From the NCBI GenBank assembly GCA_002269645.1, contig NIVC01000110.1, positions 248,001 through 312,000 of the forward strand: a stretch of DNA of 64,000 nucleotides. The letters run 5' to 3'. This stretch comes from Macrostomum lignano. Lineage: Eukaryota. The translations under genes and the position numbers were made by a program. Shown here one piece after another: positions 46,334-61,842 of the stretch (its first letter is position 1; the number at the start of each line of letters is the position of its first letter). The notes under the pieces are model-generated. The model searched no databases. It saw nothing but the letters and a program-made list of their open reading frames with translations, and had not been told where the DNA came from.

Positions 46334-47360
46334 TTAGGAGCGGCGAGAGGACGGGGGGCGGCTGACGATGTGGGCTGACGCTGCTTCCACCGTGCGCCGG
46401 CGAGCCTCGACATCAGATTCAATGTAGCGGAACACGGAGTCGCTTCGCCAGTCACCCAAGGCCATCACTTCGTGCACAGACGCGCCTGAGCTGGCGAAGA
46501 AGGTCGCCCCGCCTCTGCGCAATGAATGCCCGGAGATTGCCGTCGGGTCGAGGCCGGCCGCTGCCGCCGCTTTGAACAGCTGTTTGGAAAACTGCGGTCG
46601 ACACACCGGGACCAGTCGTTGGCTCGCTCGAAAAGCAAACAGGAGTGAGTCGGGTCCGTTTCCGGCGATATTGTTGCGCTTGAGGTGGACGAGGACCGCG
46701 CAGAACGGCAAAGCGGATGAGGAGACCCGTTCGCAGCAGGCAGTCGTGGCAGCCAGACCAGGTGCTGCCGCTCAGCAAACTGGATTGTCTTGCTGCGCCG
46801 GACCCGCAGTTCGATGCCGTTGTCGCGCAGCTGCAGGTCGTTCAGCCGCACCGCTCCGGCTGACAACTGCTGGCTCCGAGCGGCTGACGCAGAGGGGAGG
46901 CACAGATTGTCCGCACGCAGCAATCCCCAGAACCCGACCAGCAGACAGCACCAGAAGGCCGCGCTGCGGCAGGATGTCGTGTCGATGTGTGACTTGAGCT
47001 ACTTCAGCATGGCGGGTGTTAAGCCGACTTTCTGTCTCGCATGGGCGCCCCGTTGCCGTTTGACGCCTTGGAGGGCGAGTCGCACTAGGGGGTGAGCAGT
47101 CGGGTCGGCCCTCCCAGCCAGCTTGTAGAGCCACGACACCGCGTGCAGGTAGGTGGAGAAGCTGGCAAATGCGGTCAGGTGCTTGAGGTGTAGGTGGGAG
47201 ACGTAGAGTGACACCGTCGGTCCGTCGGCCTCTAGAGGGTGCACGCTGATCTCGCTGCAGAAGCGCTCCCAACACATCAGCTGGGACCGGAGGGCTCGTC
47301 TTGTATTCGGTGCCAGGGCTTGGTTGAGCAGCCGGTCTCGTTCCGTCCTCAGGGGCTCCG
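46334..47360 (-). pseudogene. Tyrosine recombinase of the Ngaro element (one stop, one frameshift)
   Basis: ALAPNTRR, GLLRADN (R), RSKT (K), GHSLRRGGAT (HxxR), GDW and FRY (catalytic Y). Confidence 0.88.
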
Positions 47361-47699
47361 CTGCAGCTGTTGAACCTGTGAGAGGAGAGATTGATAGGAA
47401 GCAGCAGACAGGGCGTGCGATGCGATGACAGATGGGTCAATGTAGATAGTTCCATAGTAACGAAATAAAAAGTTGATCAGGCCATGCTTATGGCTCAGGC
47501 GAGAAGCTGGGTCACTAAAAATTTGAAACCGGCCACGGACATGAAACACCTGGAAGTGAATGCGGTGCTTCAGCGCGAGTAAAATAGCCGTGCGCATCAG
47601 CGCCTGAACCACCGGGGGCTTGGCAGAGCCCTTGCGCAGCATCCCAGCATCAGACGAGTCGTCGGTGTAAAAAACGATGTGGCAGTTAGCTAGGTGCTC
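47349..47699 (-). pseudogene. Ngaro RNase H, C-terminal half
   Basis: EHLANCHIVFYTDD...HVRG...SDPASRL; rejoins the 60568-61842 frame when the Polinton and one TSD copy are removed. Confidence 0.8.
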
Positions 47700-48731
47700 A
47701 GTAGTAGGAAAGTGGTACCCTCTACCGCCATCGCACGGGATTGGCCGGGGCACCCGGCCAATGAGGGGAGAGGGCGCCCCGAAGACGCCCACCCCGACGC
47801 CAAACCCACCCCGACCCCCAAACCCACCCCGACCCCAAACCCACCACCGCCACGCACCCAATCCCGACCCCAAACCCGCACCCACCCCCGACCCCAAACC
47901 AGGCCCCCTCCTGTCCTACACCCCTCCTGTCCTGCACCCCGTGCATCCCATACCAAGACCCCCTCCTGTCCTGCACCCCGTGCATCCCATACCAAGACCC
48001 CCTCCTGTCCTGCACCCCGTGCATCCCATACCAAGACCCCCTCCTGTCCTGCACCCCATGCATCCCATACTAAGACCCCCTCCTGTCCTACACCCCTCCT
48101 GTCCTGCACCCCGTGCATCCCATACCAAGACCCCCTCCTGTCCTGCACCCCATGCATCCCATACCAAGGCCCCCTCCTATCCTACGCCTTGCCCCATCCC
48201 ATGTAGCAAGGTCCTTCTATCCTGTACCCTAACCAAAACCAATTCCCCCCTCCTAATTCCTAAACCCAAGTCTTATTACCTGTCTCACTTACCGCCTTTA
48301 AAGCTAGCCAAGGCAAAACCCTCATTCCATGCTTTGGTTGTACTGTATCTTGCTGTGGCGGGTACAGCGTGAGGTCGTTAGACCTAGAACGCTACTTCTT
48401 GGCGGCCAGAGGGCCGCAAGAAGGTCCCGCCACCTCCTGTTACGTTGATGGCTGAGACTTTGTTAAGGCCCGAGTTCCTGCGAAAGGGCTGCTGTGTGGG
48501 GGTTGGATTTGGGGTTCGGATTAGTTATTTCTATGGAACAGGAGCTGGTTTCTAAATGGCTGAGTGGTCCCCGGAAGGGCTCCTGATTTGCCGAGAGTTC
48601 CTGTGAGAGGGCTGTTGTGTGGGGTTGGATTCGGGGTTCGGATTGGTTATTGCTATGGAGCGGGAGCTGGTGTTACTTACCAACTCTCGTCGTATATAAT
48701 CTCGCACACAGCCGGAAGGAAAGCTCACAGT
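47700..48731 (+). repeat. Polinton left TIR (hairpin, C-rich tract, 33-bp array, TATA at 48693)
   Basis: Reverse complement of 59440-60567 apart from array copy number. Confidence 0.95.
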
Positions 48732-48788
48732 TTTTCGGTCCTAGAGTTTTATTTAAAGACTTTAAATTTTGCGTTCTAAATTTTAAAC

Positions 48789-50879
48789 ATGACATTTTGT
48801 GAATACTGTAGTCAGACAGTGCCCGGTGACATATTAGCTCACTACTCAGTGTGCCCAATTATTCCAACTTTATTTTCTGATGAACCATGTCAATTCCAAT
48901 TAATTAAAGAAGCATTTTTCGGCCAGACGCGACTCTATCGGCGGATCGTTGCCGGCGATCCCATCGACGCCCTGGAGTCATCCATTGCTTCAGGCACAGA
49001 ACTCCTGGCAGATCTGCGTTCGAAACCAGGCTTTGCCATCAAGGTCCAAATCCGACTCGGTGTGCCAATGCAGCGTTGGGCTGGTGGCAGCTTTGTGGCG
49101 CAGAGCACAGCCTGGTTTGCCAGTGAAACGGCCGAAGTCCTTTCAGATGAGGAAGAAGATTTCTTTGTTCGGGAAATCCCACTTATTTTGGAACGACTGA
49201 GCAAATACCTTCGCAATGGCAGTGGGTGGACAATTGACTCCATTCGCCAGCTCGCCGATGTGTTCGAGGCGTTTCGTCGAATGAGCCTCACTTCGGATGG
49301 GCTAGACCCAGTGCATTTTATAACGACGCCGGGAATGTCTTTCGAAGCAGCGCTTAAGTACTGTAAATTGGAGCTTGAATTGCTGCAATGTCCAGAGTTG
49401 TACAGCTTATTTGAAGAGGGTACTCGTGGTGGTATGACATTTGTCAACACACACAGAGCCAAAGCCAACCATCCCGGACTCGGTGAGCTGTATGATTCGC
49501 ATCAACCTCAAACCTATCTTATCCCCATCGACGCCAACAACCTCTACGGACACGCCTTGTCCACCAAACTGCCATGGTGTGGGTTCCAAGTGCTTGACAC
49601 TGTACCACCAAACAATGAGGTTGAGAGATGGATCAGGGATGAGTTTGACCCAGAGGGCGATGTTGGATACCTGCTAAAGGTTGATCTCCATTACCCCCCA
49701 GAGTTGCACGACAAGACATCAGACTTGCCCCTTGCTCCAGAGAAGGCGCAGCCTCAATGGGAATGGATGCCGCCGCATCAGCAGCAGCTCTGGGAACTAC
49801 TTTCTAGACAGAGGCTCTCTTGCGGAGGATATAATTCAGGAGGCGACAAGTTGATGTTGACATGCTTTGATAAAACCAGCTATGTTGTACACGCCAGAAT
49901 CCTACAGTTTTATCTCCGTCTAGGTCTTAGGCTGCGTACTGTCCACTGCATTGTTCGCTTTCAGCAAGCAGCAGTACTCGAGCCTTACATTCGACGTAAT
50001 AGTGAGCGGCGTGCACAAGCCAAAAATGAGTTTGAAAAGGATTATAATAAGCTGCTGAACAACTCTCTGTTTGGAAAGACCATGGAGAACGTGCGCAAAC
50101 GCGTCGACTACCGCCTGGTCAACTCAGCAGAGAAGTTGGAGAAGCTCGCAGCTAAACCTAACTTTGAAGATCAAGAGATATTTAATGAGAATCTTGTTCT
50201 CGTCCACATGCGCAAGACAACAGTCGAGCTCAACAAACCGGTGTACATCGGACAGTGTGTCCTTGATAACAGCAAACTCATTATGTACAGCTTGTGGTAT
50301 GATAAGCTGCTTCCGCTGGTCAATCAGTTACCGTGTGCGAGCCTCAGTCTGCTCGGCGGTGACACTGACTCTTTCTTCCTCCACTTAAAGAATGCTGATG
50401 GCGAGCGATGGTTTCTGCCTAAACTGTGCGAAATGGAGCTGCTGGACACCTCTAATTATCCCAAGGACCATTGCTTGTATACTTGCGAACGCAAAGCAAG
50501 GTTAGGCTGTGTAAAGGATGAGAGCGATGGTACAGCGAACTTTTATGAGTGGATCCTGTTGCGTCCCAAGCTCTATTCCTTTGCTGCAGTAAACTCCTCC
50601 AAGGACAAGCGTCGTGCTAAGGGTGTGCAGCGATCTGTAGTGCAAAATGAAATCTGCCACGCCGACTACTGCGAAACTTTGATGAAAATGGAAGAAAAGT
50701 CCTGGCTGACGCGTCGTATTGCCAGTGAGCATCATGAGTTGTTCACCACTGCCACCTTGAAACGCGCACTCTCGTTTTGGGAGGACAAGAGGGCATGGCT
50801 CGCGGCAAATCAGAGCCTACCCTACGGCCACTGGCGTCTAGAGGCTGAGAAGCGAAAGCGACCCTGCCCGTTTGACTAG
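48789..50879 (+). CDS. Protein-primed family B DNA polymerase, internally shortened
   Basis: DANNLYG (motif A), KLLNNSLFGK (motif B), GDTDS (motif C); GSGW...LADVFEAFR juxtaposed, so the exonuclease region is absent. Confidence 0.9.
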   Translation: MTFCEYCSQTVPGDILAHYSVCPIIPTLFSDEPCQFQLIKEAFFGQTRLYRRIVAGDPIDALESSIASGTELLADLRSKPGFAIKVQIRLGVPMQRWAGGSFVAQSTAWFASETAEVLSDEEEDFFVREIPLILERLSKYLRNGSGWTIDSIRQLADVFEAFRRMSLTSDGLDPVHFITTPGMSFEAALKYCKLELELLQCPELYSLFEEGTRGGMTFVNTHRAKANHPGLGELYDSHQPQTYLIPIDANNLYGHALSTKLPWCGFQVLDTVPPNNEVERWIRDEFDPEGDVGYLLKVDLHYPPELHDKTSDLPLAPEKAQPQWEWMPPHQQQLWELLSRQRLSCGGYNSGGDKLMLTCFDKTSYVVHARILQFYLRLGLRLRTVHCIVRFQQAAVLEPYIRRNSERRAQAKNEFEKDYNKLLNNSLFGKTMENVRKRVDYRLVNSAEKLEKLAAKPNFEDQEIFNENLVLVHMRKTTVELNKPVYIGQCVLDNSKLIMYSLWYDKLLPLVNQLPCASLSLLGGDTDSFFLHLKNADGERWFLPKLCEMELLDTSNYPKDHCLYTCERKARLGCVKDESDGTANFYEWILLRPKLYSFAAVNSSKDKRRAKGVQRSVVQNEICHADYCETLMKMEEKSWLTRRIASEHHELFTTATLKRALSFWEDKRAWLAANQSLPYGHWRLEAEKRKRPCPFD

Positions 50880-51703
50880 ATTTTTCTGAATACGAAACTT
50901 GTACCTACCTTGTTTATTGATAATAACGATGATGTTTTGTTTTATTCTGCTGTCTAGATAATAAAAATACCATTGATACCATTTTTTAATATAATCAGAA
51001 TGTTTTGGCCGATAATACTGCCAATGTGTGCGTTGCATTTTTGTACGTTTCATTTGCTGATTTTTAATTACTAACGAGGAATTATGGCACTTTTTTAATA
51101 AACATGAAATGTATATATGTTAGTTTGAGTTGAGGCTGGTAAAAAGAAAATTTTTTTTTATTTATTTTCATAAAGTAAAAAGGGTTTAAAACTGTCGATA
51201 AAATAATATATAAAACAAACTAAATTCAAATCGAAATACTAGTTTTTGTGTAAAATTAAATCGTGTAAAACAATGTAAAATTTCATGCACTTAAAAAAGG
51301 TTAAAAATCTCCATTGAAATACATGTGTTTTATGCAAAAGTATGCAAGTTTTCGTCCAGTGATTAAAAGTATGCAATACGGCGTGAATTTTTCGACAAAA
51401 TGCGTCTACTTTCATGCACAGGTTCGGGTACAAATCCCTATTGAAATACATGTATTTTGTGCACAAGTATGCAAGTTTTCGTGCACAGTGTTAAAAAGTA
51501 TGCAAAGTGTTGAGGTTTTTTGTGCACACATTCGGGTAAAAATTCCCATCGAAATGTATGTATTTTGTGCAAACATGCATGCTTTTTCGTGCACAACAGA
51601 GGCTAGAAACGCTAAATCCGCAGAAACTGGTGGGGTGGGCAGTTTTTTTTTTCAAGCCGGGTGTTTGGCATAAGAAAATGATAGGTACTAGAAATTCGGT
51701 AAA

Positions 51704-52928
51704 ATGAAAACGAAAAAGGCAATTTCAAACCTTCTGCCAGGTATTTATTTTGACTGCAGTAGACCGGGCAGCTATGGCGGCTATCAGGCATTAAAACGAG
51801 AGTTGCACAAACACCACGGACCCAAGTTTAGTGTAGGGCAGGTATGCATATACGATATACTTCTAAACCAATGATTTTCTAGAAAATTCCAGCTTAGGTT
51901 TTTAGTTTTATCCACTAACTAGCAATTTCCAGTTTTTTTTTTTACAATTAAAGGTAAAAACGTGGCTCCAAGACCAAGATGTCTACACACTGCATAGAGA
52001 TAAACGCAAAAACTTTTGTCGAGCACCGATTGTGGTGCGGGGCATGGATGACCAGTGGGAACTGGACCTTGTTGAAATGCTGCCGTTCGCTAAGTACAAT
52101 GGCGGCGTACGATATATTCTATGCTGCATTGATGTGCTCAGCAAGTTTGCCTGGGTTCAGCCAGTGCGCCGCAAGACAGCCGAGGAGGTTGCAGCCGGAT
52201 TCGAAGCGATCCTAAATCGAGCTCACCCTCGATGCCCACGAGCAGTTCGGACCGACCGTGGAAAAGAGTTTTGCAACACCCAGTTCCGAGCCCTCTGCGT
52301 AAACCACAAAATTCATGCATTCACATCAAGTAGTGACCAGAAATGCGCAGTCATTGAGAGATGGAACCGCACACTGAAATCCCGAATGTGGCGGTACTTC
52401 CGTCACAAGTCAACATTAACCTGGACCGATGTGCTTCAACCCTTAGCAAAAGCATACAACCAGAGTATTCATCGGAGTATTCAAAGCCGACCAGTTGATG
52501 TCGACAGGTCAAACGAGATGGAAATTTGGCAGCGGCTTTACGATGGGAAGCTTCCTGAGACTCGTGAAAAGGTCTCCAGACCAAAGTTCAAGGCAGGAAT
52601 GATGGTGCGAATCTCTCTTCGCAATCTGGCCAACCCATTCACCAAGGGATACACAAGGGGATGGAGTGAGGAAGTATTTGAAGTCAAGTCCCTCCACCCC
52701 AAGCATTATCCATACATGTACACTCTGATCGATGCCCGAGGTGAAGAGTTGGAAGGCAAGTTTTACGAGCCGGAAATGCAGCAAGTGACTGGAAACAAGA
52801 AGTTGTGGATCATCGACAAGGTTCTCAACATTAAGAAGCTGAAGAGTGGAAAGATTCGGTATTTGGTTCAGTGGCGCGATTCAGAAAGACCCAGTTGGAT
52901 TGACGAAAAAGACTTAAGAAAAATATGA
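51704..52928 (+). CDS. Retroviral-like integrase with C-terminal chromodomain; exons 51704-51841 and 51954-52928
   Basis: YFD-SRPGSYGG...Q|VKTWLQDQDVYTLH joined across a GT-AG intron; DDE (DLVEM / TDRGKEF / IERWNRT); chromo-like YLVQW...SWI. Confidence 0.88.
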
Positions 52929-53707
52929 AAAGGCAAAGATTTCAGGTAATGTCCGGCCCCGATGATGACCCGGCCAACTTTACTGCTGAGCTGCTGCATC
53001 CTGTGCTGCTGGATTCTGCTTTGGACTATGAGCTGGGTCTGCTTGGAATCAGTTTTATCAACTGCATCTACACCATCCCTCATCCATTGTCGCTATATTA
53101 TCAGCTTGAGGGTTCAATGCAATGTGCTGAAATTCCAGCTGGGCGCTACAATGACTTGAATGAGCTGATTGATGCAGTAAATGCCCTACTGATTGTGAAA
53201 GATTTTGATGAGTCTGGAATTGGCGAAACACCTATAAATGTGCATCTAATTAAATTTACCCTTGATTCAGTTAGCCATCATGTATACTATCAAATGGCTG
53301 GGATCTGTGGGAGATTTATCTTTCCAGAAAACAGCCAGCTGGGGAAAATCTTTGGTGCTGCGCAGACAACCTATAGCGAGCAGGCAGGATGTTTTGAACG
53401 ACCTGGCATGAACCCGGCCTGGAATACGGATTTGCTGCTTGTTGAGTGCGATCAGATTAGCCCGCGCTGTATTGGAAATCAGTTTACTCCAGCACTGCAG
53501 ACTTTGAATATTGGTGGTCTTTTGCAGGGTCACCGGTCGGAACTCATCTATAAGAATAAGCTGTTCTTCCCAATAGCAGCAAACCACCGCTTAACACACA
53601 TGCAAATACGGCTACGACCGATCAACTGTATCGAATCTATCCGATTACTCTTTGGACCCACAGTCTTGACTTTTGAGCTGCGTGAGTCATGGACATTCGA
53701 CAAGTGA
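52925..53707 (+). CDS. Minor capsid (penton-like, single jelly-roll) protein
   Basis: NFTAELLHPVLL...YELGLLGISF and C-terminal VECDQI...IG..F.PAL patterns typical of Polinton mCP; canonical position after integrase. Confidence 0.7.
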   Translation: MKRQRFQVMSGPDDDPANFTAELLHPVLLDSALDYELGLLGISFINCIYTIPHPLSLYYQLEGSMQCAEIPAGRYNDLNELIDAVNALLIVKDFDESGIGETPINVHLIKFTLDSVSHHVYYQMAGICGRFIFPENSQLGKIFGAAQTTYSEQAGCFERPGMNPAWNTDLLLVECDQISPRCIGNQFTPALQTLNIGGLLQGHRSELIYKNKLFFPIAANHRLTHMQIRLRPINCIESIRLLFGPTVLTFELRESWTFDK

Positions 53708-53916
53708 CCGAGTTTTATCGAGGCAGTTGCTTCAAACTTCCTCATGGGCACGGATATCCCACATCGCTGCTATCTCGACTGCCCCCTGAGACTCATGAAA
53801 ATGCAGTTCTCCTTTCCCGCATACCACCTCCATCGCAGAAAAAACATAAGAAGACGCCAAAAATCAAACCAAAGAAGAGCAAGCCAGTGCCCACAAAAAA
53901 GCGCAAGATATCATAA
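53689..53916 (+). CDS. Small Lys-rich putative core/DNA-packaging protein
   Basis: FYRG...GHG motif and basic tail; lies between mCP and MCP. Confidence 0.45.
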   Translation: MDIRQVTEFYRGSCFKLPHGHGYPTSLLSRLPPETHENAVLLSRIPPPSQKKHKKTPKIKPKKSKPVPTKKRKIS

Positions 53917-53949
53917 AAACAGTCAACGAGTGCTCGATTCACTCTCATA

Positions 53950-55219
53950 ATGTATCGGACAAATCCACGGCTCAACCTGTTTGAGCCAAAGACGCATGAA
54001 ATTGGAGTGGATAGGTCTCACTTCATGGACTTTCATCCCATCGGCAGTCTCACGACTCCTGATGCACCGATTGAATTCGACTGCCACGCCTCCTCTGAGG
54101 ACTACACCGATCTGCACGCCACAGTGCTGCAAGTCACTTGCGGATAACTCGTGTGATAAACAATGCAGAGCTGACTAATGAAGATGATGCCCATGTCGGA
54201 CTATCGAATCTCCCGCTTGCCAGCCTGTTTCGTGATGTCACTGTAAAACTCAACCAGCGGGTTGTGAGTGGTGGGGACCAGCTCTACCCATATCGAGCAA
54301 TGCTTCAAGTGCTGACCAGCAGCAATGCCAACCAGCTTCAAGAACTGGCGGCCGCAGGTTATTATCCAGACACCGCTGGAGAGAGTGACACCATTGGGGA
54401 GCAAAATCATGGATTCACAAATCGTGCGAGATTGCATGAGGCTTCTGCTGTTGTGCAATATGCCGGCCCGTTGTTTTCAGACATTTTTCAATCCGGCAGT
54501 ATCTGCTAAACCAAATCAGCCTGCAGGTCAAATTGACCCGGCATTGCAGCGCTTTTTCGTTGATGGTACCCAATAATGGAGTTCAATATCGTATTGAAGT
54601 CGACAATGCTATTCTGCTTTTGAGGCGTCTCCGAGTAAACCCAACAGTGGCTCTCGCACATGAACAGGGGCTCTCACAACGTAATGCTCTCTACCACTTT
54701 GATAGAAGAGAGCTTCAGACATTCACATTTTCTGTTGGGACAAGAAACAAGAGTCTCGATTCAATCACGCATGGTCAGCTGCCAAAATTTGTGCTCCTTG
54801 GAATGGTCAGCCAGACTGCTTTCAATGGATCTCTGCACCACAACCCGTTTTGGTTCCAAGCATTTGGATTGAATAGTTTAAGCCTGTTTGTCAATGGAGA
54901 GCCAATTACTGGGCAGCCCATAGAACCACAGCAGCAGCACTCATCCGAATTTTTGCAGTTTGCCCGCAGTCTCGGTGGAAAATATTGCATAAGCTTTGAT
55001 GAATTTCGAAATAGTGCCTATCTGCTTGCGTTTGACCTTAGTCCAAGTGGCGATGAAGTAGGCAGCTGGTTTGGTCATAGGCAGGGTCAACTACGACTGG
55101 ATATTCGCTTTTCCAACGCTCTCGCACAGCCAGTCACACTCATCTGCTTGTGCGTGTATGATTCATGCATGGAAATCACTAAAGAGAGGGATGTGCTGCT
55201 GGATTATCGCAGAGCATGA
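53950..55219 (+). pseudogene. Major capsid protein (double jelly-roll) with two 1-nt frameshifts
   Basis: LNLF...PIEF, SLF..V.V.LN, YPYRA, GQLPK, AFNG...NPF.F, AFDL, R.V..DY; breaks at ~54141 and ~54499. Confidence 0.85.
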
Positions 55220-55689
55220 ATTCCGAAGAGTTGGAAGCGTTCATTTCTCGCTGCCCCACATCTGTGCGGGATGCCTATTGCGGAAATTTTACAGTTGGAA
55301 CAGTGACACCATTTTTCGATTCAACCTGCCGACCCTGCTGCTTCATTTTGTATGAGCCATGGAATGATGAGTGCGGTCACTGGATTGCTGGAGTAGTAAC
55401 CAGTAAAGTGCATTGTGAAATTTTCAACTCTTTGGGAGGCTTGAGTAAAAATATGAAGAGCTGGTTAAAGAAAACTAAACCGACGCGGATGGTGCTACAA
55501 TGGAATACGGTCCCTGTTCAGCCCAGTTCGTCAACTCTATGCGGCTGGTATTGCATTTTTTACTTGATCCATCGACTACATAAGAGAATGTCATATAATG
55601 CCTTGTTCATCAAGGTTTTGCACCCGGCAGCTGTGGCTCAAAACGATGCAATCATACTCAGACTCAAAAATCAGTTGCAAGGTGTTTGA
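55216..55689 (+). CDS. Adenain-like (C5) cysteine protease
   Basis: GHW (His), FNSLG, Q..S.LCGWYC (Gln and Cys). Confidence 0.85.
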   Translation: MNSEELEAFISRCPTSVRDAYCGNFTVGTVTPFFDSTCRPCCFILYEPWNDECGHWIAGVVTSKVHCEIFNSLGGLSKNMKSWLKKTKPTRMVLQWNTVPVQPSSSTLCGWYCIFYLIHRLHKRMSYNALFIKVLHPAAVAQNDAIILRLKNQLQGV

Positions 55690-56304
55690 TTCCAGACTGC
55701 GGATGGGAGGCTGCATGATGGTTTCGGGCCCTTCTCGAGCGGGAAAATCAACATTCTGTTTGCGGTTGCTGTCCCAACGACTGCTTCTGTTCGACCAACC
55801 TCCCAAGCGGATGATTTGGTATCACGGATGCCCGCAGCCGGAACTCCACACGACTCTGCGGCGGCTAGGAGTGCAAGTATGTGAAGGATTATCGAATTTG
55901 GATCTGCAGCCCCATGACCTGATTGTGATTGACGATTTACTGGATGAAGCAGCTGCAAGTCGAGAGCTACGACATCTGTTCACCCGTGAGGCCACCACAA
56001 GCCCTGCTTTGTCATTCTCATCACGCAAAATCTATTTTTCAAAGGCAGAGAGTGGCGCACAATTAGCATAAATTGCACCTACATTGTGTTGTTCAACAAC
56101 CCCAGAGACGCCTCTGCGGTCCAAGCTTTAAGTCAGCAATGCTTTCCCAAACGGCGCACTCTGCTAGTAGAACTGATGGATCGATTGGTGCGAGATGGAG
56201 ATCAGCGCTATCTGCTGCTTGATTTTCACCCCGCTTCACCCCATGAACTGCGCCTGAGAGCCAATTTTCTCCCCGATGAGGCCCCGCAGCGAGTTTATCT
56301 ATAA
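55682..56304 (+). pseudogene. A32/FtsK-like packaging ATPase with one 1-nt frameshift
   Basis: Walker A GPSRAGKS, Walker B IVIDD, then HH...ITQNLF and LFNNPRD in the shifted frame (break at ~55993). Confidence 0.88.
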
Positions 56305-56334
56305 GAATGGCTCAGTCTCTGCACTGAGTTAAAC

Positions 56335-56667
56335 ATGGATAAACACATTGCACTAATAACTGTCTTTTGTGAGGGCACTATATCCTTGCGTCGCTGCATA
56401 CTTACCTATGCAAATAAAAGCACCATTTGCTTTTTGGTCGAGTGTATTATCAACTTACTAGCAGGAAAAGTTGGCTGTGAAGATAGCTTGAAGCGGAGAC
56501 TCAGGCGATATCGAAATACTCTCCGGCTTGTTGCACAAAGCAAAAGTGTGAAAGAGGCTCGGCGCAATCTCTCACACCCGCATATCCTTCGTTGTCTTCC
56601 TCTGATTCTCACCTGTATAAAAAGACATGTACAAGGAAATGATACTGGTACCCCGGTTGCAGTATGA
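56335..56667 (+). CDS. Conserved small Polinton protein (PW-like)
   Basis: ECIINLLAGKV...L..Y...LR pattern recalled from Polintons; sits after the ATPase. Confidence 0.55.
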   Translation: MDKHIALITVFCEGTISLRRCILTYANKSTICFLVECIINLLAGKVGCEDSLKRRLRRYRNTLRLVAQSKSVKEARRNLSHPHILRCLPLILTCIKRHVQGNDTGTPVAV

Positions 56668-57222
56668 GGCACTTGTGAATCAGAGGGGCATGGAGACAGT
56701 CTGTGAACCCGAGCTAGAGGCGGAAAAACGTTGCGCAAGATTAGGGACGAGCGTTGCGTGCAGCAGCTGCAGGCAAGTGCGACCCAAGAACAGCCTCCAG
56801 TAATTCACAAAGAACCGCAGTGGAAGGAGGTTTTATATCTGACGGTGAATCAGAAATGGCATCATCGTCTGCAGGCATTGATTAGCTTCATAACCGTAAA
56901 GTGCAAGTCGATTAGCATAGATGATACGTATGAAGTTTCTGTCAATGGTAAACCGTTGTACAACTCAAATATCGTGGACCTGCTGCATTTCATAGTTAAA
57001 GATACGTACTCTAAGTACCTTCAGCCACCGAATGGGATTAATGAGTTTGTTACGTGTCTTCAAGAAAACCACGTGCCTCTGTCTGCAGTTGGTCTGAACA
57101 CTACAAAATTGCTGGAAAAGCCTCGGGAAGAAAAGTCCAGTCCTAAAAAACCTCGACTGCAAGGCTATAAGAAGACTCAGTCTCAGAAAGGATACGGCAA
57201 GTGGATCAAGTGGCCAAGATGA
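56639..57222 (+). pseudogene. Conserved Polinton hypothetical protein (frameshift in an A-run at ~56728)
   Basis: MILVP start, SNIVDLL, P.G...F...L....VP, terminal KWIKW. Confidence 0.5.
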
Positions 57223-57660
57223 TTGTCATTGATTTTGAAGGATTTCCGCACCTCTACAAAACAGAGGACTTTGTGATTAAGGAAATTGCATGGGTTGAGT
57301 TTGCATGCGGTCAAACGACGGCTCATTACTATTGCTACCGACCGCCGCACAGCTTTGAGCTCTTTGATCGAGGACAGCGACGAACCTGCTACTGGCTCAC
57401 CAATAAGCGGCACGGTCTAGACTGGGACAGGAGTGGGTTCCGACCCTACTCTTGTCTCTGGAGCGATATCTCTCACTTGCAAGGCCCGATATTTAGCAAG
57501 GGGGATGTCAAGTGCCAGTTCCTGTCGCGTCTGCTGCTACAGCCTGTCTACGACCTCGCACACCTGGCCTTTCCGAGTGCCTCGAAGTACGTGCTACCCT
57601 GCGCCCTGGCCAAGGTGGCGCTGTACGCTGATTGGCTGCGGCCTCGCGGCTACGGGTCTA
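57219..57660 (+). CDS. Stand-alone DEDD-type 3'-5' exonuclease-like protein (3' end uncertain)
   Basis: IVIDFEGF...KEIA...HGLDW...KG..K...DL...CAL; ATGA overlap with the upstream gene. Confidence 0.55.
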
Positions 57661-57696
57661 TAAAAGTAGCGATCTGCAGCAGGCACTGGCATTTCT
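57631..57696 (+). promoter_or_regulatory. CCAAT(reverse)-TATAAAAG-Inr core promoter of the TBP-like gene
   Basis: ATTGG at 57631, TATAAAAG at 57659-66, CATTTC 32 nt after the TATA start, ATG at 57712. Confidence 0.55.
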
Positions 57697-57711
57697 CTCG
57701 ATTGTCTAAAG

Positions 57712-58311
57712 ATGGCCGCAGCAATTCGCGTAACAAACATCGTGACAGGAGCCGACCTGGCGACCCGGGTGGCTCTGCCACAACTAGCGAATTTCCTGAC
57801 TCTTCATCTGCCTCAGTATCACACAATCCGCCATCGCCTGGTTCATCCTCGAACACTGGCTGTGGCGATGAAGAGCGGGCAGCATCGAGTAACCGCGCTG
57901 GTGTATCCGACCGGACAAGTGTCTGTCTGTGGAGCCAAAAGCATGGAGGAAGCTCTCGCAGAGACGGAGAAGATTGTGAAGCTGTGTGCGGACTTCTTGC
58001 GATTGACCAGTCTGCCCCAGGTTCGCATCAAGACTATTACCTCTGTGACGGCCTTTCCCGCGGGTCGGCATCCACTCCGGTTGGGGGAAGTCAAGTCTAA
58101 ATGGCCGCATCGGGCCACCTACGAGCCGGAAATGTTTAACGGACTTGTGCTCGAGTTTACTGCCTCTGTAAAGTTGATTTTGTTTCATTCATATCGCTGT
58201 ATAATAGCTGGTGCTCGCAGCGTGGTTGAGGCTCAGACTGCAGCTGATGCCCTCTCCCGCATTTTGCTACCAGATCAAGCATCCGAACCTACTTTGCTGG
58301 ACTCTGACTGA
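57712..58311 (+). CDS. TATA-binding-protein-like protein, 199 aa
   Basis: Two TBP repeats: TNIV..., TALVYPTGQVSVCGAKS, YEPEMFNGL, LILFHS.RCIIAGARS; AATAAA at ~58441. Confidence 0.85.
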   Translation: MAAAIRVTNIVTGADLATRVALPQLANFLTLHLPQYHTIRHRLVHPRTLAVAMKSGQHRVTALVYPTGQVSVCGAKSMEEALAETEKIVKLCADFLRLTSLPQVRIKTITSVTAFPAGRHPLRLGEVKSKWPHRATYEPEMFNGLVLEFTASVKLILFHSYRCIIAGARSVVEAQTAADALSRILLPDQASEPTLLDSD

Positions 58312-58743
58312 GCTCCTCTACGGCATAACAGTAGTAGTGAGATCTGCCTATGCACCGAGTAATAATAATAATAATAATAATAATAATATTTTTCCTATAA
58401 CTTTACTTCTATATTTTTTGTGTACAAAATATAAGAAAAAATAAACGCGAATGCGACTATGTTTGTGCAACAATGCTTACGAAAATGAAATGTTTTTTTT
58501 TGTTTATTTTATTGGCAGGTCCATGGATTGAAAAGCATAAAATTACATGTTAAAAGCTCGTATTAGCACAAAAAAGTTTATTAAGAATGGAAGGGCAGTA
58601 TTAAGGCCCGTCGCCTGTATTTACAAAACAGTATTATCGCCCGGAATCAAAGCATGATGGGGCAATATTATAGCCAGTATTGACAAAGCAGTATATACAA
58701 CAGTGCATGATCAGTACTATGGTTCAAAACTATATTAAAAACG

Positions 58744-59432
58744 TTAATTGACGAAATGACCAGTTGTCGCTTCATGCATTGCGCGTCGCTTCATTGGTGG
58801 CTGGTGGAATGAAGGCTGTTGGTTCTTCTCAGCTGTTGGTGGCTCTTCCAGAGTTTCGGATGCAAATCTCTTTCTAAATTCAGCCTGAACTGCCTGGAAA
58901 GCCTCCCAGTGGTCGTCCCACTCTGCCGGCTGCCTGTCAGGTACTTGTATAAGTTGGTCGAGTGTAAGCCTTGCTGCCCATGCTGCACACTCTTCAGGCT
59001 CCGTAGGGTGGTATCCCATGGATCGCCGATCGGTGGCTTGACCGGAGGTTCTCGCTTGACAATTTTGTCTAGGACCCAATGCTTTTGAGCCCAGACTTCG
59101 CGCCAAAGTTTTGTAGGAAGCGGTAAGGCGTGCCTTAGGTGCACCGGCGGTCCGAGTACAGTTGGAAGGCGCCAGAGTGTGATTACGCCATTTTGCACAA
59201 CCACTTGCCTGTTGCCACCCAGAAGGCATTGCGCATCGATACACTTTCTTGCAAACTCTTCCAGTCGTTCCTTCAGGCTGCCCAAGTGGCAAAACTGGTG
59301 GACGGTGAGCTCCATGCCAGGCAGACCTGGTCGATACTCTTCATCAAATTTGTACCACTTTCTGATGCTGATGCACTTCGAGTGCGACCTGACGCCGATT
59401 CGAAATCTGTTCGATAATGTCTTGAAGTTCAT
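58744..59432 (-). CDS. PC4/Sub1-like ssDNA-binding protein (tandem PC4-like; C-terminal frame uncertain)
   Basis: ISIRKWYKFDEEYRPGLPGMELTVHQFCHL matches the PC4 core IRxxY....xPGxxGIxL...QW..L. Confidence 0.62.
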
Positions 59433-59439
59433 TTTGTTC

Positions 59440-60567
59440 ACTGTGAGCTTTCCTTCCGGCTGTGTGCGAGATTATATACGACGAGAGTTGGTAAGTAACA
59501 CCAGCTCCCGCTCCATAGCAATAACCAATCCGAACCCCGAATCCAACCCCACACAACAGCCCTCTCACAGGAACTCTCGGCAAATCAGGAGCCCTTCCGG
59601 GGACCACTCAGCCATTTAGAAACCAGCTCCTGTTCCATAGAAATAACTAATCCGAACCCCAAATCCAACCCCCACACAGCAGCCCTTTCGCAGGAACTCG
59701 GGCCTTAACAAAGTCTCAGCCATCAACGTAACAGGAGGTGGCGGGACCTTCTTGCGGCCCTCTGGCCGCCAAGAAGTAGCGTTCTAGGTCTAACGACCTC
59801 ACGCTGTACCCGCCACAGCAAGATACAGTACAACCAAAGCATGGAATGAGGGTTTTGCCTTGGCTAGCTTTAAAGGCGGTAAGTGAGACAGGTAATAAGA
59901 CTTGGGTTTAGGAATTAGGAGGGGGGAATTGGTTTTGGTTAGGGTACAGGATAGAAGGACCTTGCTACATGGGATGGGGCAAGGCGTAGGATAGGAGGGG
60001 GCCTTGGTATGGGATGCATGGGGTGCAGGACAGGAGGGGGTCTTGGTATGGGATGCACGGGGTGCAGGACAGGAGGGGTGTAGGACAGGAGGGGGTCTTA
60101 GTATGGGATGCATGGGGTGCAGGACAGGAGGGGGTCTTGGTATGGGATGCACGGGGTGCAGGACAGGAGGGGTGTAGGACAGGAGGGGGTCTTAGTATGG
60201 GATGCATGGGGTGCAGGACAGGAGGGGGTCTTGGTATGGGATGCACGGGGTGCAGGACAGGAGGGGGTCTTGGTATGGGATGCACGGGGTGCAGGACAGG
60301 AGGGGGTCTTGGTATGGGATGCACGGGGTGCAGGACAGGAGGGGTGTAGGACAGGAGGGGGCCTGGTTTGGGGTCGGGGGTGGGTGCGTGGGTTTGGGGT
60401 CGGGATTGGGTGCGTGGCGGTGGTGGGTTTGGGGTCGGGGTGGGTTTGGGGGTCGGGGTGGGTTTGGCGTCGGGGTGGGCGTCTTCGGGGCGCCCTCTCC
60501 CCTCATTGGCCGGGTGCCCCGGCCAATCCCGTGCGATGGCGGTAGAGGGTACCACTTTCCTACTACT
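59440..60567 (-). repeat. Polinton right TIR
   Basis: Inverted copy of the left TIR with extra 33-bp units. Confidence 0.95.
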
Positions 60568-61842
60568 GTGCTCCTTGAAAAGGATAATAAAAAGCAGAGG
60601 CATAACACCCTCCGGGTAGTTGATGTGCAGTCCATGAAGTGCACCACTAAAGTCAGCCAACCAGTTGACATACATCCAGTCGGTCCTTGTTCCGTCAGAA
60701 ATGACTGCTGCGCCACCTGATAGGCAGGCGTCCGTCTCAACCACCAGCCGGTTCGCGAAGGCCGGCCACAGTTCGATTCCATGCATCCAGTTCGTTGCTG
60801 ATCGCCAGAAACGCAGCTGCTCACCAAGTTGACCTTCGATGCGCATCTTGTGGTGAGGCAAGTCCAGGCTGTTGGTCAGGTTGATGAGGCCCCGAAGTAA
60901 CGATCTACCAGCGCGGGCGACCTCGCAGAACCAACCGATTTTTCCGCAGAGCTTCTGCAGTTGCTTTTTGCTGAGTCGCTTGCTGGCAGCTGCGGCGTCC
61001 AGCAGGCTCTGCAAAGATTCGAGTTTCTCCTGCGGGAGAGTCAGGCGGCCTTCAGCCGTATCAATGTGGATGCCGAGAAAAACCATAGACTTGCTGGGTG
61101 GAGATAGGTTCTCCCAGTTGATTGAAAAACCCAGGCGGCGCAGCAGACTCAGAAGAGTGCTATAGGCTTCCTGGCAGGCTTCCAGCGTGCTCGCGGCAAC
61201 GGCAAAGTCATCGAGGTAGTTGCAGATGACGTGGTACCCTCGCCGAACCATCATACGCTTGACGGCTTCCGACAACCGGTGGAAAATGTTGACGCTAGCG
61301 GCGAACCCGAAGCCGAGGCAGGTGTCAACGAGGTACCTGGGCTCACTCTCGCCGCTGAAGGTCCACCGGAGTCCTGTGATGGAGTAGGCTGTAGAGCTGA
61401 CGGGACAGGAGCGGTAGGCTTTGGCCAGATCGATTTTAGCCATAAACCAACCCGGCTTCAGCTTCTTGGTAAATGCGTTGACAGTCGAAAAGCGAAGCTT
61501 CTTGTCCTGCTTAAAGTACTCATTGATGCTCCGGCCGCGAGGCAGACTGGCGTCGTGGATCAGCCGGAGACCTCCAGGAGACTTGGCCACCGCTCCCAGG
61601 GGGCTGACGATGAGCGGTTTATCCTTCACTAACATGTACCTGTTGTTCTTCAGTTCCTCCAGGATCAGCTTCTCAACTTGCTCACGATTCTCAGGACAAG
61701 TGGCAGATCTGTGGTTTTCTTCGCTAGCTGCGAGGATATTGCTCTGGTTGGTGATTTCGAAACCTTTTCTGATGCCGTTCAAGATGAACTCGGTGTCTGG
61801 ATCCGACTGTAGCTCTTCCTCCCATACAGATAACTTATGCAC
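60568..61842 (-). pseudogene. Ngaro RT and N-terminal RNase H
   Basis: KIDLAKAY, LGFGF, YLDD, FLGI.ID, ETDAC; interrupted by the Polinton. Confidence 0.9.

Follow-up and report, generated by a model that had tools for sequence, protein, structure and literature searches.

TBP-like genes are already annotated in MELD viruses, where they are listed in a figure legend of Starrett et al. 2021 (PMC8502044; preprint 10.1101/697771), and a protein called MOSUB is already annotated in an adintovirus. The main-text passages of PMC8502044 at our disposal mention no TBP function, no MOSUB and no PC4, and they describe neither a promoter motif nor an SSB swap. A functional precedent is KSHV ORF24, one of the TBP mimics of beta- and gamma-herpesviruses, in which a viral TBP fold works at late promoters that have a variant box. 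According to the available sections of PMC12529657, ORF24 replaces host TBP on late promoters carrying the box TATTWAA, which are read by host Pol II; it is one component of a six-protein complex, directly binds Pol II and is devoid of the acidic TFIIB stirrup. On the PC4 side, excerpts of the literature tie a phage T5 homolog to replication (PMC7145618, PMC7549692), and PC4 folds, the T5 homolog and the phage protein Drc are also treated in PMC4350104. Similarly partial sources report T7-like SSBs in four giant-virus families (PMC11253617) and include DUF2738/5871 in maps of PLVs, where the protein is marked as unknown (10.1101/2022.07.28.501842). Term searches of the main texts of PMC10748475 and 10.64898/2026.06.19.733378 returned no mention of PC4 or TATA. 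More generally, the accessible literature on Polintons or adintoviruses combined with PC4, TBP or TAAG promoters contained no account of an SSB swap or of the motif described below; subscription papers for the most part, supplements and figures fall outside this coverage, and the gene maps of Starrett et al. may show more.

The stretch of DNA analysed here, hereafter the window, comprises 64,000 nt of the Macrostomum lignano genome, and coordinates are given in it unless another locus is named. Two database proteins matching sister elements, one of them at 100%, are likewise attributed to this flatworm. It contains a Polinton/Maverick (adintovirus) of 12.9 kb at 47700-60567. Inverted repeats of about 1 kb enclose the element, the left one starting with AGTAGT (47700..48731, +) and the right one ending with ACTACT (59440..60567, −), and a 6-bp target-site duplication, GTGCTC, lies on either side (47694..47699 and 60568..60573). 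The insertion is polymorphic, as contigs from two of four public runs bridge the empty site, and these joints support the left duplication. Hence, the first-pass annotation was right in calling this a 13-kb mobile virus. The terminal inverted repeats (TIRs) and the empty site are covered by contigs of the four runs, which may derive from DNA. Small indels separate the run contigs from the window sequence, and some frame breaks in the window copy may be assembly errors or differences between copies. The element sits within a reverse-transcriptase ORF (59965-61635, −), with related pieces at about 46772-47642, which we assign by likeness to a DIRS-like retroelement.

The gene content is the one shared by adintoviruses, Polintons and MELD viruses in the passages available from PMC8502044, namely TIR bounds, pPolB, integrase, protease, ATPase and capsid genes, with pPolB shortened and several frames broken in the window copy. 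The protein-primed DNA polymerase B (pPolB) gene (48789..50879, +) encodes 696 aa and is internally shortened relative to the 1200-aa gene of a sister lineage, lineage B; its Pfam score is 17 bits, under the cut-off, vs 52 bits in lineage B. The region between pPolB and integrase is AT-rich at 51100-51680, where a TTTTGTGCA-type unit recurs in short repeats. A retroviral-type integrase with a chromodomain follows (52044..52928, +; rve, 50 bits by Pfam), the 5' part of which lies upstream in another frame, so that both pPolB and a retroviral integrase are present. The capsid genes gave no Pfam match. The likely minor capsid gene (52925..53707, +) is called from its position, and the major capsid protein (MCP) gene, in pieces at 53950..55219 (+), is presumed to be such from its likeness to Polinton MCP. 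By Pfam we identified an adenovirus-type cysteine protease (55216..55689, +), weakly in the window copy and above the PF00770 cut-off in the lineage-B orthologue, and a packaging ATPase, in pieces (55703..56305, +). Next comes a 110-aa ORF (56335..56667, +), and the lineage-C gene in the same place matches Adeno_PX at the cut-off. The last gene before the TBP-like one is an ORF common to lineages A and B (57219..58100, +), the 3' part of which overlaps the TBP-like gene in another frame. From a motif recognized by eye, we take it to be DEDD-exonuclease-like; neither this ORF nor its lineage-B counterpart (L018:1076-1927) matched Pfam or PHROG families.

The TBP-like gene (57712..58311, +) has an intact frame of 199 aa. 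Its identity, proposed from the letters of the sequence, was borne out: Pfam TBP (PF00352) scored 68.4 bits over two matching stretches (cut-off 22.9), PDB TBPs were matched from E 1e-9, and the structure model (pLDDT 86) has the TBP saddle topology. The best viral fold matches of this model were giant-virus TBPs (E 2e-12), and among the 50 viral matches listed, many of them nameless, none was named as an adintovirus protein. With cellular and giant-virus TBPs the protein shares the two-repeat saddle, the N and V opening repeat 1, the YEPE stirrup and the second-repeat Phe pair. The acidic TFIIB stirrup E-P-E and both second-repeat Phe were present in 12/12 A/B-type rows, and the more divergent lineage-C proteins retain D-x-E-x-F, the Phe pair and the Tyr. 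The protein differs from cellular TBP in its core, only about 23% identical to that of host TBP, and in its DNA-contact residues. Instead of the four intercalating Phe and both central Asn of a canonical TATA-binding protein, repeat 1 has lost its first Phe and has Tyr in place of the second (11/11), the Asn of repeat 2 is Thr or Ser (Thr in the window), and the Phe pair of repeat 2 is kept in all element rows. Contrary to a herpesvirus-type mimic, a large protein with a Pol II-binding domain and no stirrup, the element encodes a bare core of 190-200 aa that keeps the stirrup, in a 13-kb genome and with WTAAG as its candidate box. The N-terminal half of the gene is under purifying selection in lineage B (dN/dS 0.15-0.26); lineage-A copies are too similar to one another for such an estimate. 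In a tree of 19 TBPs, which took in no giant-virus TBPs, A grouped with B (91/89), C formed its own group (100/100) and the element TBPs were separated from three cellular rows with 76/64 support. A single origin of the element TBPs is neither shown nor rejected by these sequences.

The gene facing it (58744..59432, −) had been described as PC4/Sub1-like and probably tandem, and both descriptions proved accurate. The main frame (58791-59432, 213 aa) scored 23 bits with Pfam PC4 (PF02229) over aa 6-50, narrowly missing the cut-off of 25; three of four lineage-B orthologues exceeded this cut-off, the family profile matched human PC4 (E 4e-7), and hhalign to host PC4 gave 96.9%. The model of aa 1-130 (pLDDT 85.8) shows two repeats in one chain, bbbba-linker-bbbba, as in type I PC4-like domains. 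Its first repeat superposes on PC4 with an rmsd of 1.2, and the closest structure to the whole of aa 1-130 is Pur-alpha repeats I-II (Z 11.4, rmsd 3.6, 121 aligned residues). Among PC4/Sub1, Pur-alpha, Whirly, MRP and the phage T5 homolog, repeat 1 is homologous to PC4, and the two-repeat fold of Pur-alpha corresponds to the entire element domain. A Foldseek comparison of the model with the PDB gave nothing at E <= 0.001 (best 0.005), and its top viral fold match was the lancelet adintovirus protein named MOSUB (E 2e-4). Whereas PC4 itself forms a dimer of two identical chains, each with one repeat and an N-terminal arm, the element protein holds an asymmetric tandem of repeats in a single chain, and its C-terminal tail is variable. 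A frame change near codon 140, beyond both repeats, moves the tail of the window gene into another frame (58744-59229), and twelve close copies comprise five with a single frame of 228-231 aa, three with 213 aa as in the window, three with 145 aa and one with 126 aa. A third repeat in this tail was considered and found no support, as the tail is not conserved. The acidic, lysine-rich N-terminal arm of animal PC4 is a coactivator feature. Host PC4 has this arm, while the element protein opens directly with the DNA-binding core and thus departs from the coactivator type both in being armless and in having two repeats. It retains the Arg of the host core, an aromatic residue at the W89 position and the Gln, and PGKKG is replaced by PG(V/L)PG, a change that removes a basic DNA contact. 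The core is under purifying selection in lineage B (dN/dS 0.05 and 0.12 in two of six pairs, dS being saturated in the other four). Multi-PC4 proteins of 300-500 aa, found among 266 profile matches, were dropped as Polinton relatives; the two with names among ten checked were algal.

The TBP-like and PC4-like genes converge on a spacer of 432 nt (58312..58743; 32% GC) with an (AAT)n run. The poly(A) signals noted earlier on both strands of this AT-rich spacer are indeed there, with one AATAAA on the + strand and three on the − strand, but they carry no weight as evidence since 20% of shuffled sequences also have the signal on both strands. As a sign of pairing they were rejected, being at chance level and also found on both strands in one of three lineage-B spacers between TBP and pPolB.

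To see how the two genes are distributed, we compared related elements, all within this one genome. A search with the TBP-like query gave 150 scored matches out of 207 candidates, which fell into two groups, lineage A, to which the window element belongs, and lineage B, which is 36-41% identical to it. In lineage B, TBP faces pPolB in 8/8 elements, and PC4 is the first gene at the opposite end, about 7.5 kb from TBP, in the seven of these eight elements for which its placement is covered (six seen directly, one by search position). From integrase to TBP, the genes of the central block are arranged almost identically in A and B, and the PC4 and pPolB ends are swapped relative to this block; this swap is the reason why TBP and PC4 stand head-to-head in lineage A only. 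The convergence of the two genes is therefore incidental, and the gene order in lineages B and C rules out the convergent pair as a conserved module. In some rearranged copies, the two ends carry one and the same terminal gene, inverted relative to each other (L119-L120/C272, L132-L133/C1584, C592 and C862).

Lineage C was found through an MCP search (34-37% identity). At 12/17 of its loci a highly divergent TBP-like gene lies beside a two-exon SSB-like gene, the remaining five loci being cut, rearranged or partly covered; nine of the 12 pairs were located through a search with the SSB-like gene, which biases the pair count and not the absence of PC4. Three of the seven lineage-C TBP-like proteins tested scored above the Pfam cut-off. 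PC4 was found at 0/17 loci, including four elements covered end to end between their inverted repeats; the best PC4-profile score was E 0.02, against positive controls at E 3e-70 and 2.5e-8, the latter being host PC4. The earlier proposal to examine co-occurrence thus received a split answer across lineages A to C of this genome: both genes are kept in A and B, and PC4 is missing from C. The two-exon gene combines a DUF2738/DUF5871-like domain with a basic tail (for example L075:4682-5862 in G000:C1975, and L074:2835-4002 in C1680), and is followed by the TBP-like gene, a deoxynucleoside kinase and pPolB, with a dUTPase past the polymerase in some elements. Its product (P0010) gave no Pfam match. 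It fell in Nucleocytoviricota clusters of the Atlas at 0.96, and its structure matched clusters bearing DUF2738, DUF5871 and Pox_I3 (TM 0.62-0.69), from an Atlas model that is weak (pLDDT 0.56); an Atlas search with exon 2 alone returned no match. We take the DUF2738/DUF5871 and Pox I3 families to be OB-fold SSBs, akin to the T7 gp2.5-like SSBs of Nucleocytoviricota, and P0010 is likely to be such a giant-virus-type OB-fold SSB. The window element has no OB-fold SSB, and lineage C has P0010 where A and B have PC4: the two genes fill the terminal slot in different lineages and were never found together in the elements compared.

A fourth lineage, D, is about 15.5 kb long and very abundant, with 665 candidates, 98 of them scored at 97-100% MCP identity (L126:2196 to L127:7733 in G000:C14). 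One lineage-D element searched end to end had no match to TBP, PC4 or an OB-type SSB. It has poly(A)-rich leaders and an ORF that, from its motif, we take to be phospholipase-like.

We then looked at the promoters. In the window copy, PC4 and pPolB lie just inside the TIRs, each behind the same canonical TATA box, TATATAAT, found within the left TIR 96 nt ahead of pPolB (48693..48700, +) and, identical, within the right TIR 46 nt ahead of PC4 (59471..59478, −). In a second lineage-A copy the sequence ahead of pPolB is different. The two-exon gene of lineage C has a TATATAAG box, as PC4 does in A and B. Ahead of the TBP gene itself stands a canonical TATAAAAG box in lineage A, in the window 53 nt from the start of the gene (57659..57666, +); in lineage B there is a WTAAG motif, and the 130 nt upstream contain no canonical TATA. 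When 6-mers were scanned without bias, TAAG words ranked first in each of lineages A, B and C. The top word was TAAGAA in A (seven seen, 1.3 expected, none antisense), TTAAGA in B (52 seen, 10.6 expected, six antisense) and TATAAG in C (31 seen, 5.7 expected, one antisense), the B and C counts pooling related, non-independent copies. In the TBP-less lineage D, TAAG 6-mers ranked no higher than 390th among 3564. The pattern WTAAG[ACT]A occurs within 120 nt upstream of 5/9, 6/10, 4/7 and 3/8 genes vs 0/11 in lineage D; it was chosen after the scan had been seen, so that its P values are inflated, and one lineage-A start is approximate. Lineage D is the sole negative control, a single element from a distant clade. 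The motif is strand-biased and precedes many structural genes. It lies mostly 35-58 nt upstream, within a range of 30 to about 110 nt, and is missing ahead of about half of the genes; several copies lie inside the coding sequence of the preceding gene or extend over a stop codon. In the window, a WTAAGAA motif precedes the integrase region (51669..51676, +), for which the start codon is approximate, and TATAAGAA is found 35 nt ahead of the 110-aa ORF, where it overlaps the ATPase stop codon (56300..56307, +), and 53 nt ahead of the exonuclease-like ORF (57166..57173, +). The flanks of the motif are lineage-specific, CTTAAGAA, (C/T)ATAAGAA and TATAAGCA, and vary along with TBP. Lineages A, B and C may hold TBP and the motif in common through descent alone.

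Altogether, we favour, with moderate confidence, a reading in which the two genes are separate parts, the tandem PC4 being the replication SSB and the TBP-like protein a stand-in for host TBP at WTAAG-type late promoters. An element-encoded transcription function, as first suggested, thus appears likely for the TBP-like gene, and is very unlikely to extend to a joint action with PC4, given the independent distribution of the two genes. That PC4 is simply the replication SSB had been raised only as the alternative, and it is now the better supported of the two: in different lineages, two unrelated folds that both probably bind ssDNA occupy one terminal position, with one type of promoter ahead of it, in the window the TATA box shared with pPolB, and we read PC4 as an SSB for this reason. 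From slot, promoter type and sequence features the assignment is likely, and an additional promoter role for PC4 is possible. Against the need for such a protein, lineage D shows neither kind of SSB, which means that an SSB is not required. For the TBP-like protein, we give moderate odds to a late-promoter factor that recruits host TFIIB. In the proposed scheme, host TBP would first fire the TIR promoters, yielding polymerase and SSB, and during strand-displacement replication the displaced strand would be covered by PC4, a pseudo-dimer in one chain. The element TBP, with its acidic stirrup kept, would then bind the WTAAG boxes and draw TFIIB and Pol II of the host to the genes for capsid and packaging. 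The TBP gene of lineage B, with its WTAAG motif and no canonical TATA, fits poorly with a simple cascade from early to late.

Three other explanations were weighed. It is unlikely, in our judgment, that PC4 is an SSB with a second task, linking replication with late transcription in that it opens promoter DNA, or keeps it open, for the element TBP, in no fixed complex. Drc of N4-related phages, a transcription cofactor that binds ssDNA and has a sheet alignable with that of PC4 (PMC7145618), and the unwinding of duplex DNA by PC4 folds (PMC7549692), both taken from partial text, would suit such a role, and it also fits the SSB swap in lineage C, but the promoter layout gives no call for it. 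The stirrup of the TBP-like protein is better conserved than its DNA-contact residues, and the motif distances are widely spread; both would agree with a decoy for host TFIIB or for TBP regulators, TAAG being read by another factor or serving as an initiator. TAAG is the core of the baculovirus late initiator. We consider the decoy quite improbable, however, as the invariant Phe pair of the second repeat and the Tyr of the first are expected if DNA bending is retained, the motif flanks change by lineage in step with TBP, and the ORFs of the window and lineage-B elements include no RNA polymerase gene. Weakest is the initiation module of the first-pass annotation, in which TBP-like and PC4-like proteins would bind each other as a dedicated complex with PC4 as the coactivator holding the melted promoter: both genes are retained in A and B despite 35-40% identity, and Sub1/PC4 is linked to TFIIB, its ssDNA-binding region including coactivation sequences (PMC9600219, in the part available), but TBP and PC4 are distributed independently, being adjacent in lineage A alone, with TBP facing pPolB throughout lineage B and standing without PC4 in lineage C, a PC4-like MOSUB occurs in the lancelet adintovirus (known here from that protein alone), and the element PC4 has no N-terminal regulatory arm, so that we hold it to be very unlikely.

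Returning to the reading as separate parts, we tentatively extend it to a more general proposal, for which the odds are somewhat below even. A captured TBP with a retuned DNA face might act as a sigma-like factor for WTAAG late promoters, each lineage having its own TBP and box, and the SSB slot might be filled interchangeably by a PC4 tandem or a giant-virus OB-fold protein, giving a two-stage host-Pol II programme in animal Polintons of 13-20 kb. The proposal bears on how Polintons activate their capsid genes and on which protein is their SSB. If it is true, no smaller viral TBP switch would be known, and the Polinton SSB would have a name. The locus supplies a pair of small proteins as candidates, predicted promoter boxes for three lineages, one each, and, within the same genome, a control lineage that lacks TBP, and the TBP-PC4 pair itself is revealed as a tempting false lead.

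Searches for element context outside this genome, in viral contigs (with TBP, host TBP, PC4 and MCP queries) and in metagenome contigs, returned none. Short contigs of other samples carry relatives of the lineage-A and lineage-B TBPs (P0001, P0002, P0004-P0006 and P0008), with 60-63% and 28-35% identity to the window protein, which indicates that both lineages occur beyond the M. lignano genome. The host genes for TBP, a TRF2-like protein and PC4 each occur at three nearly identical sites in this genome, their core frames being free of interruptions (L035:1375-2034, L040:1318-2511 and L043:1219-1692).
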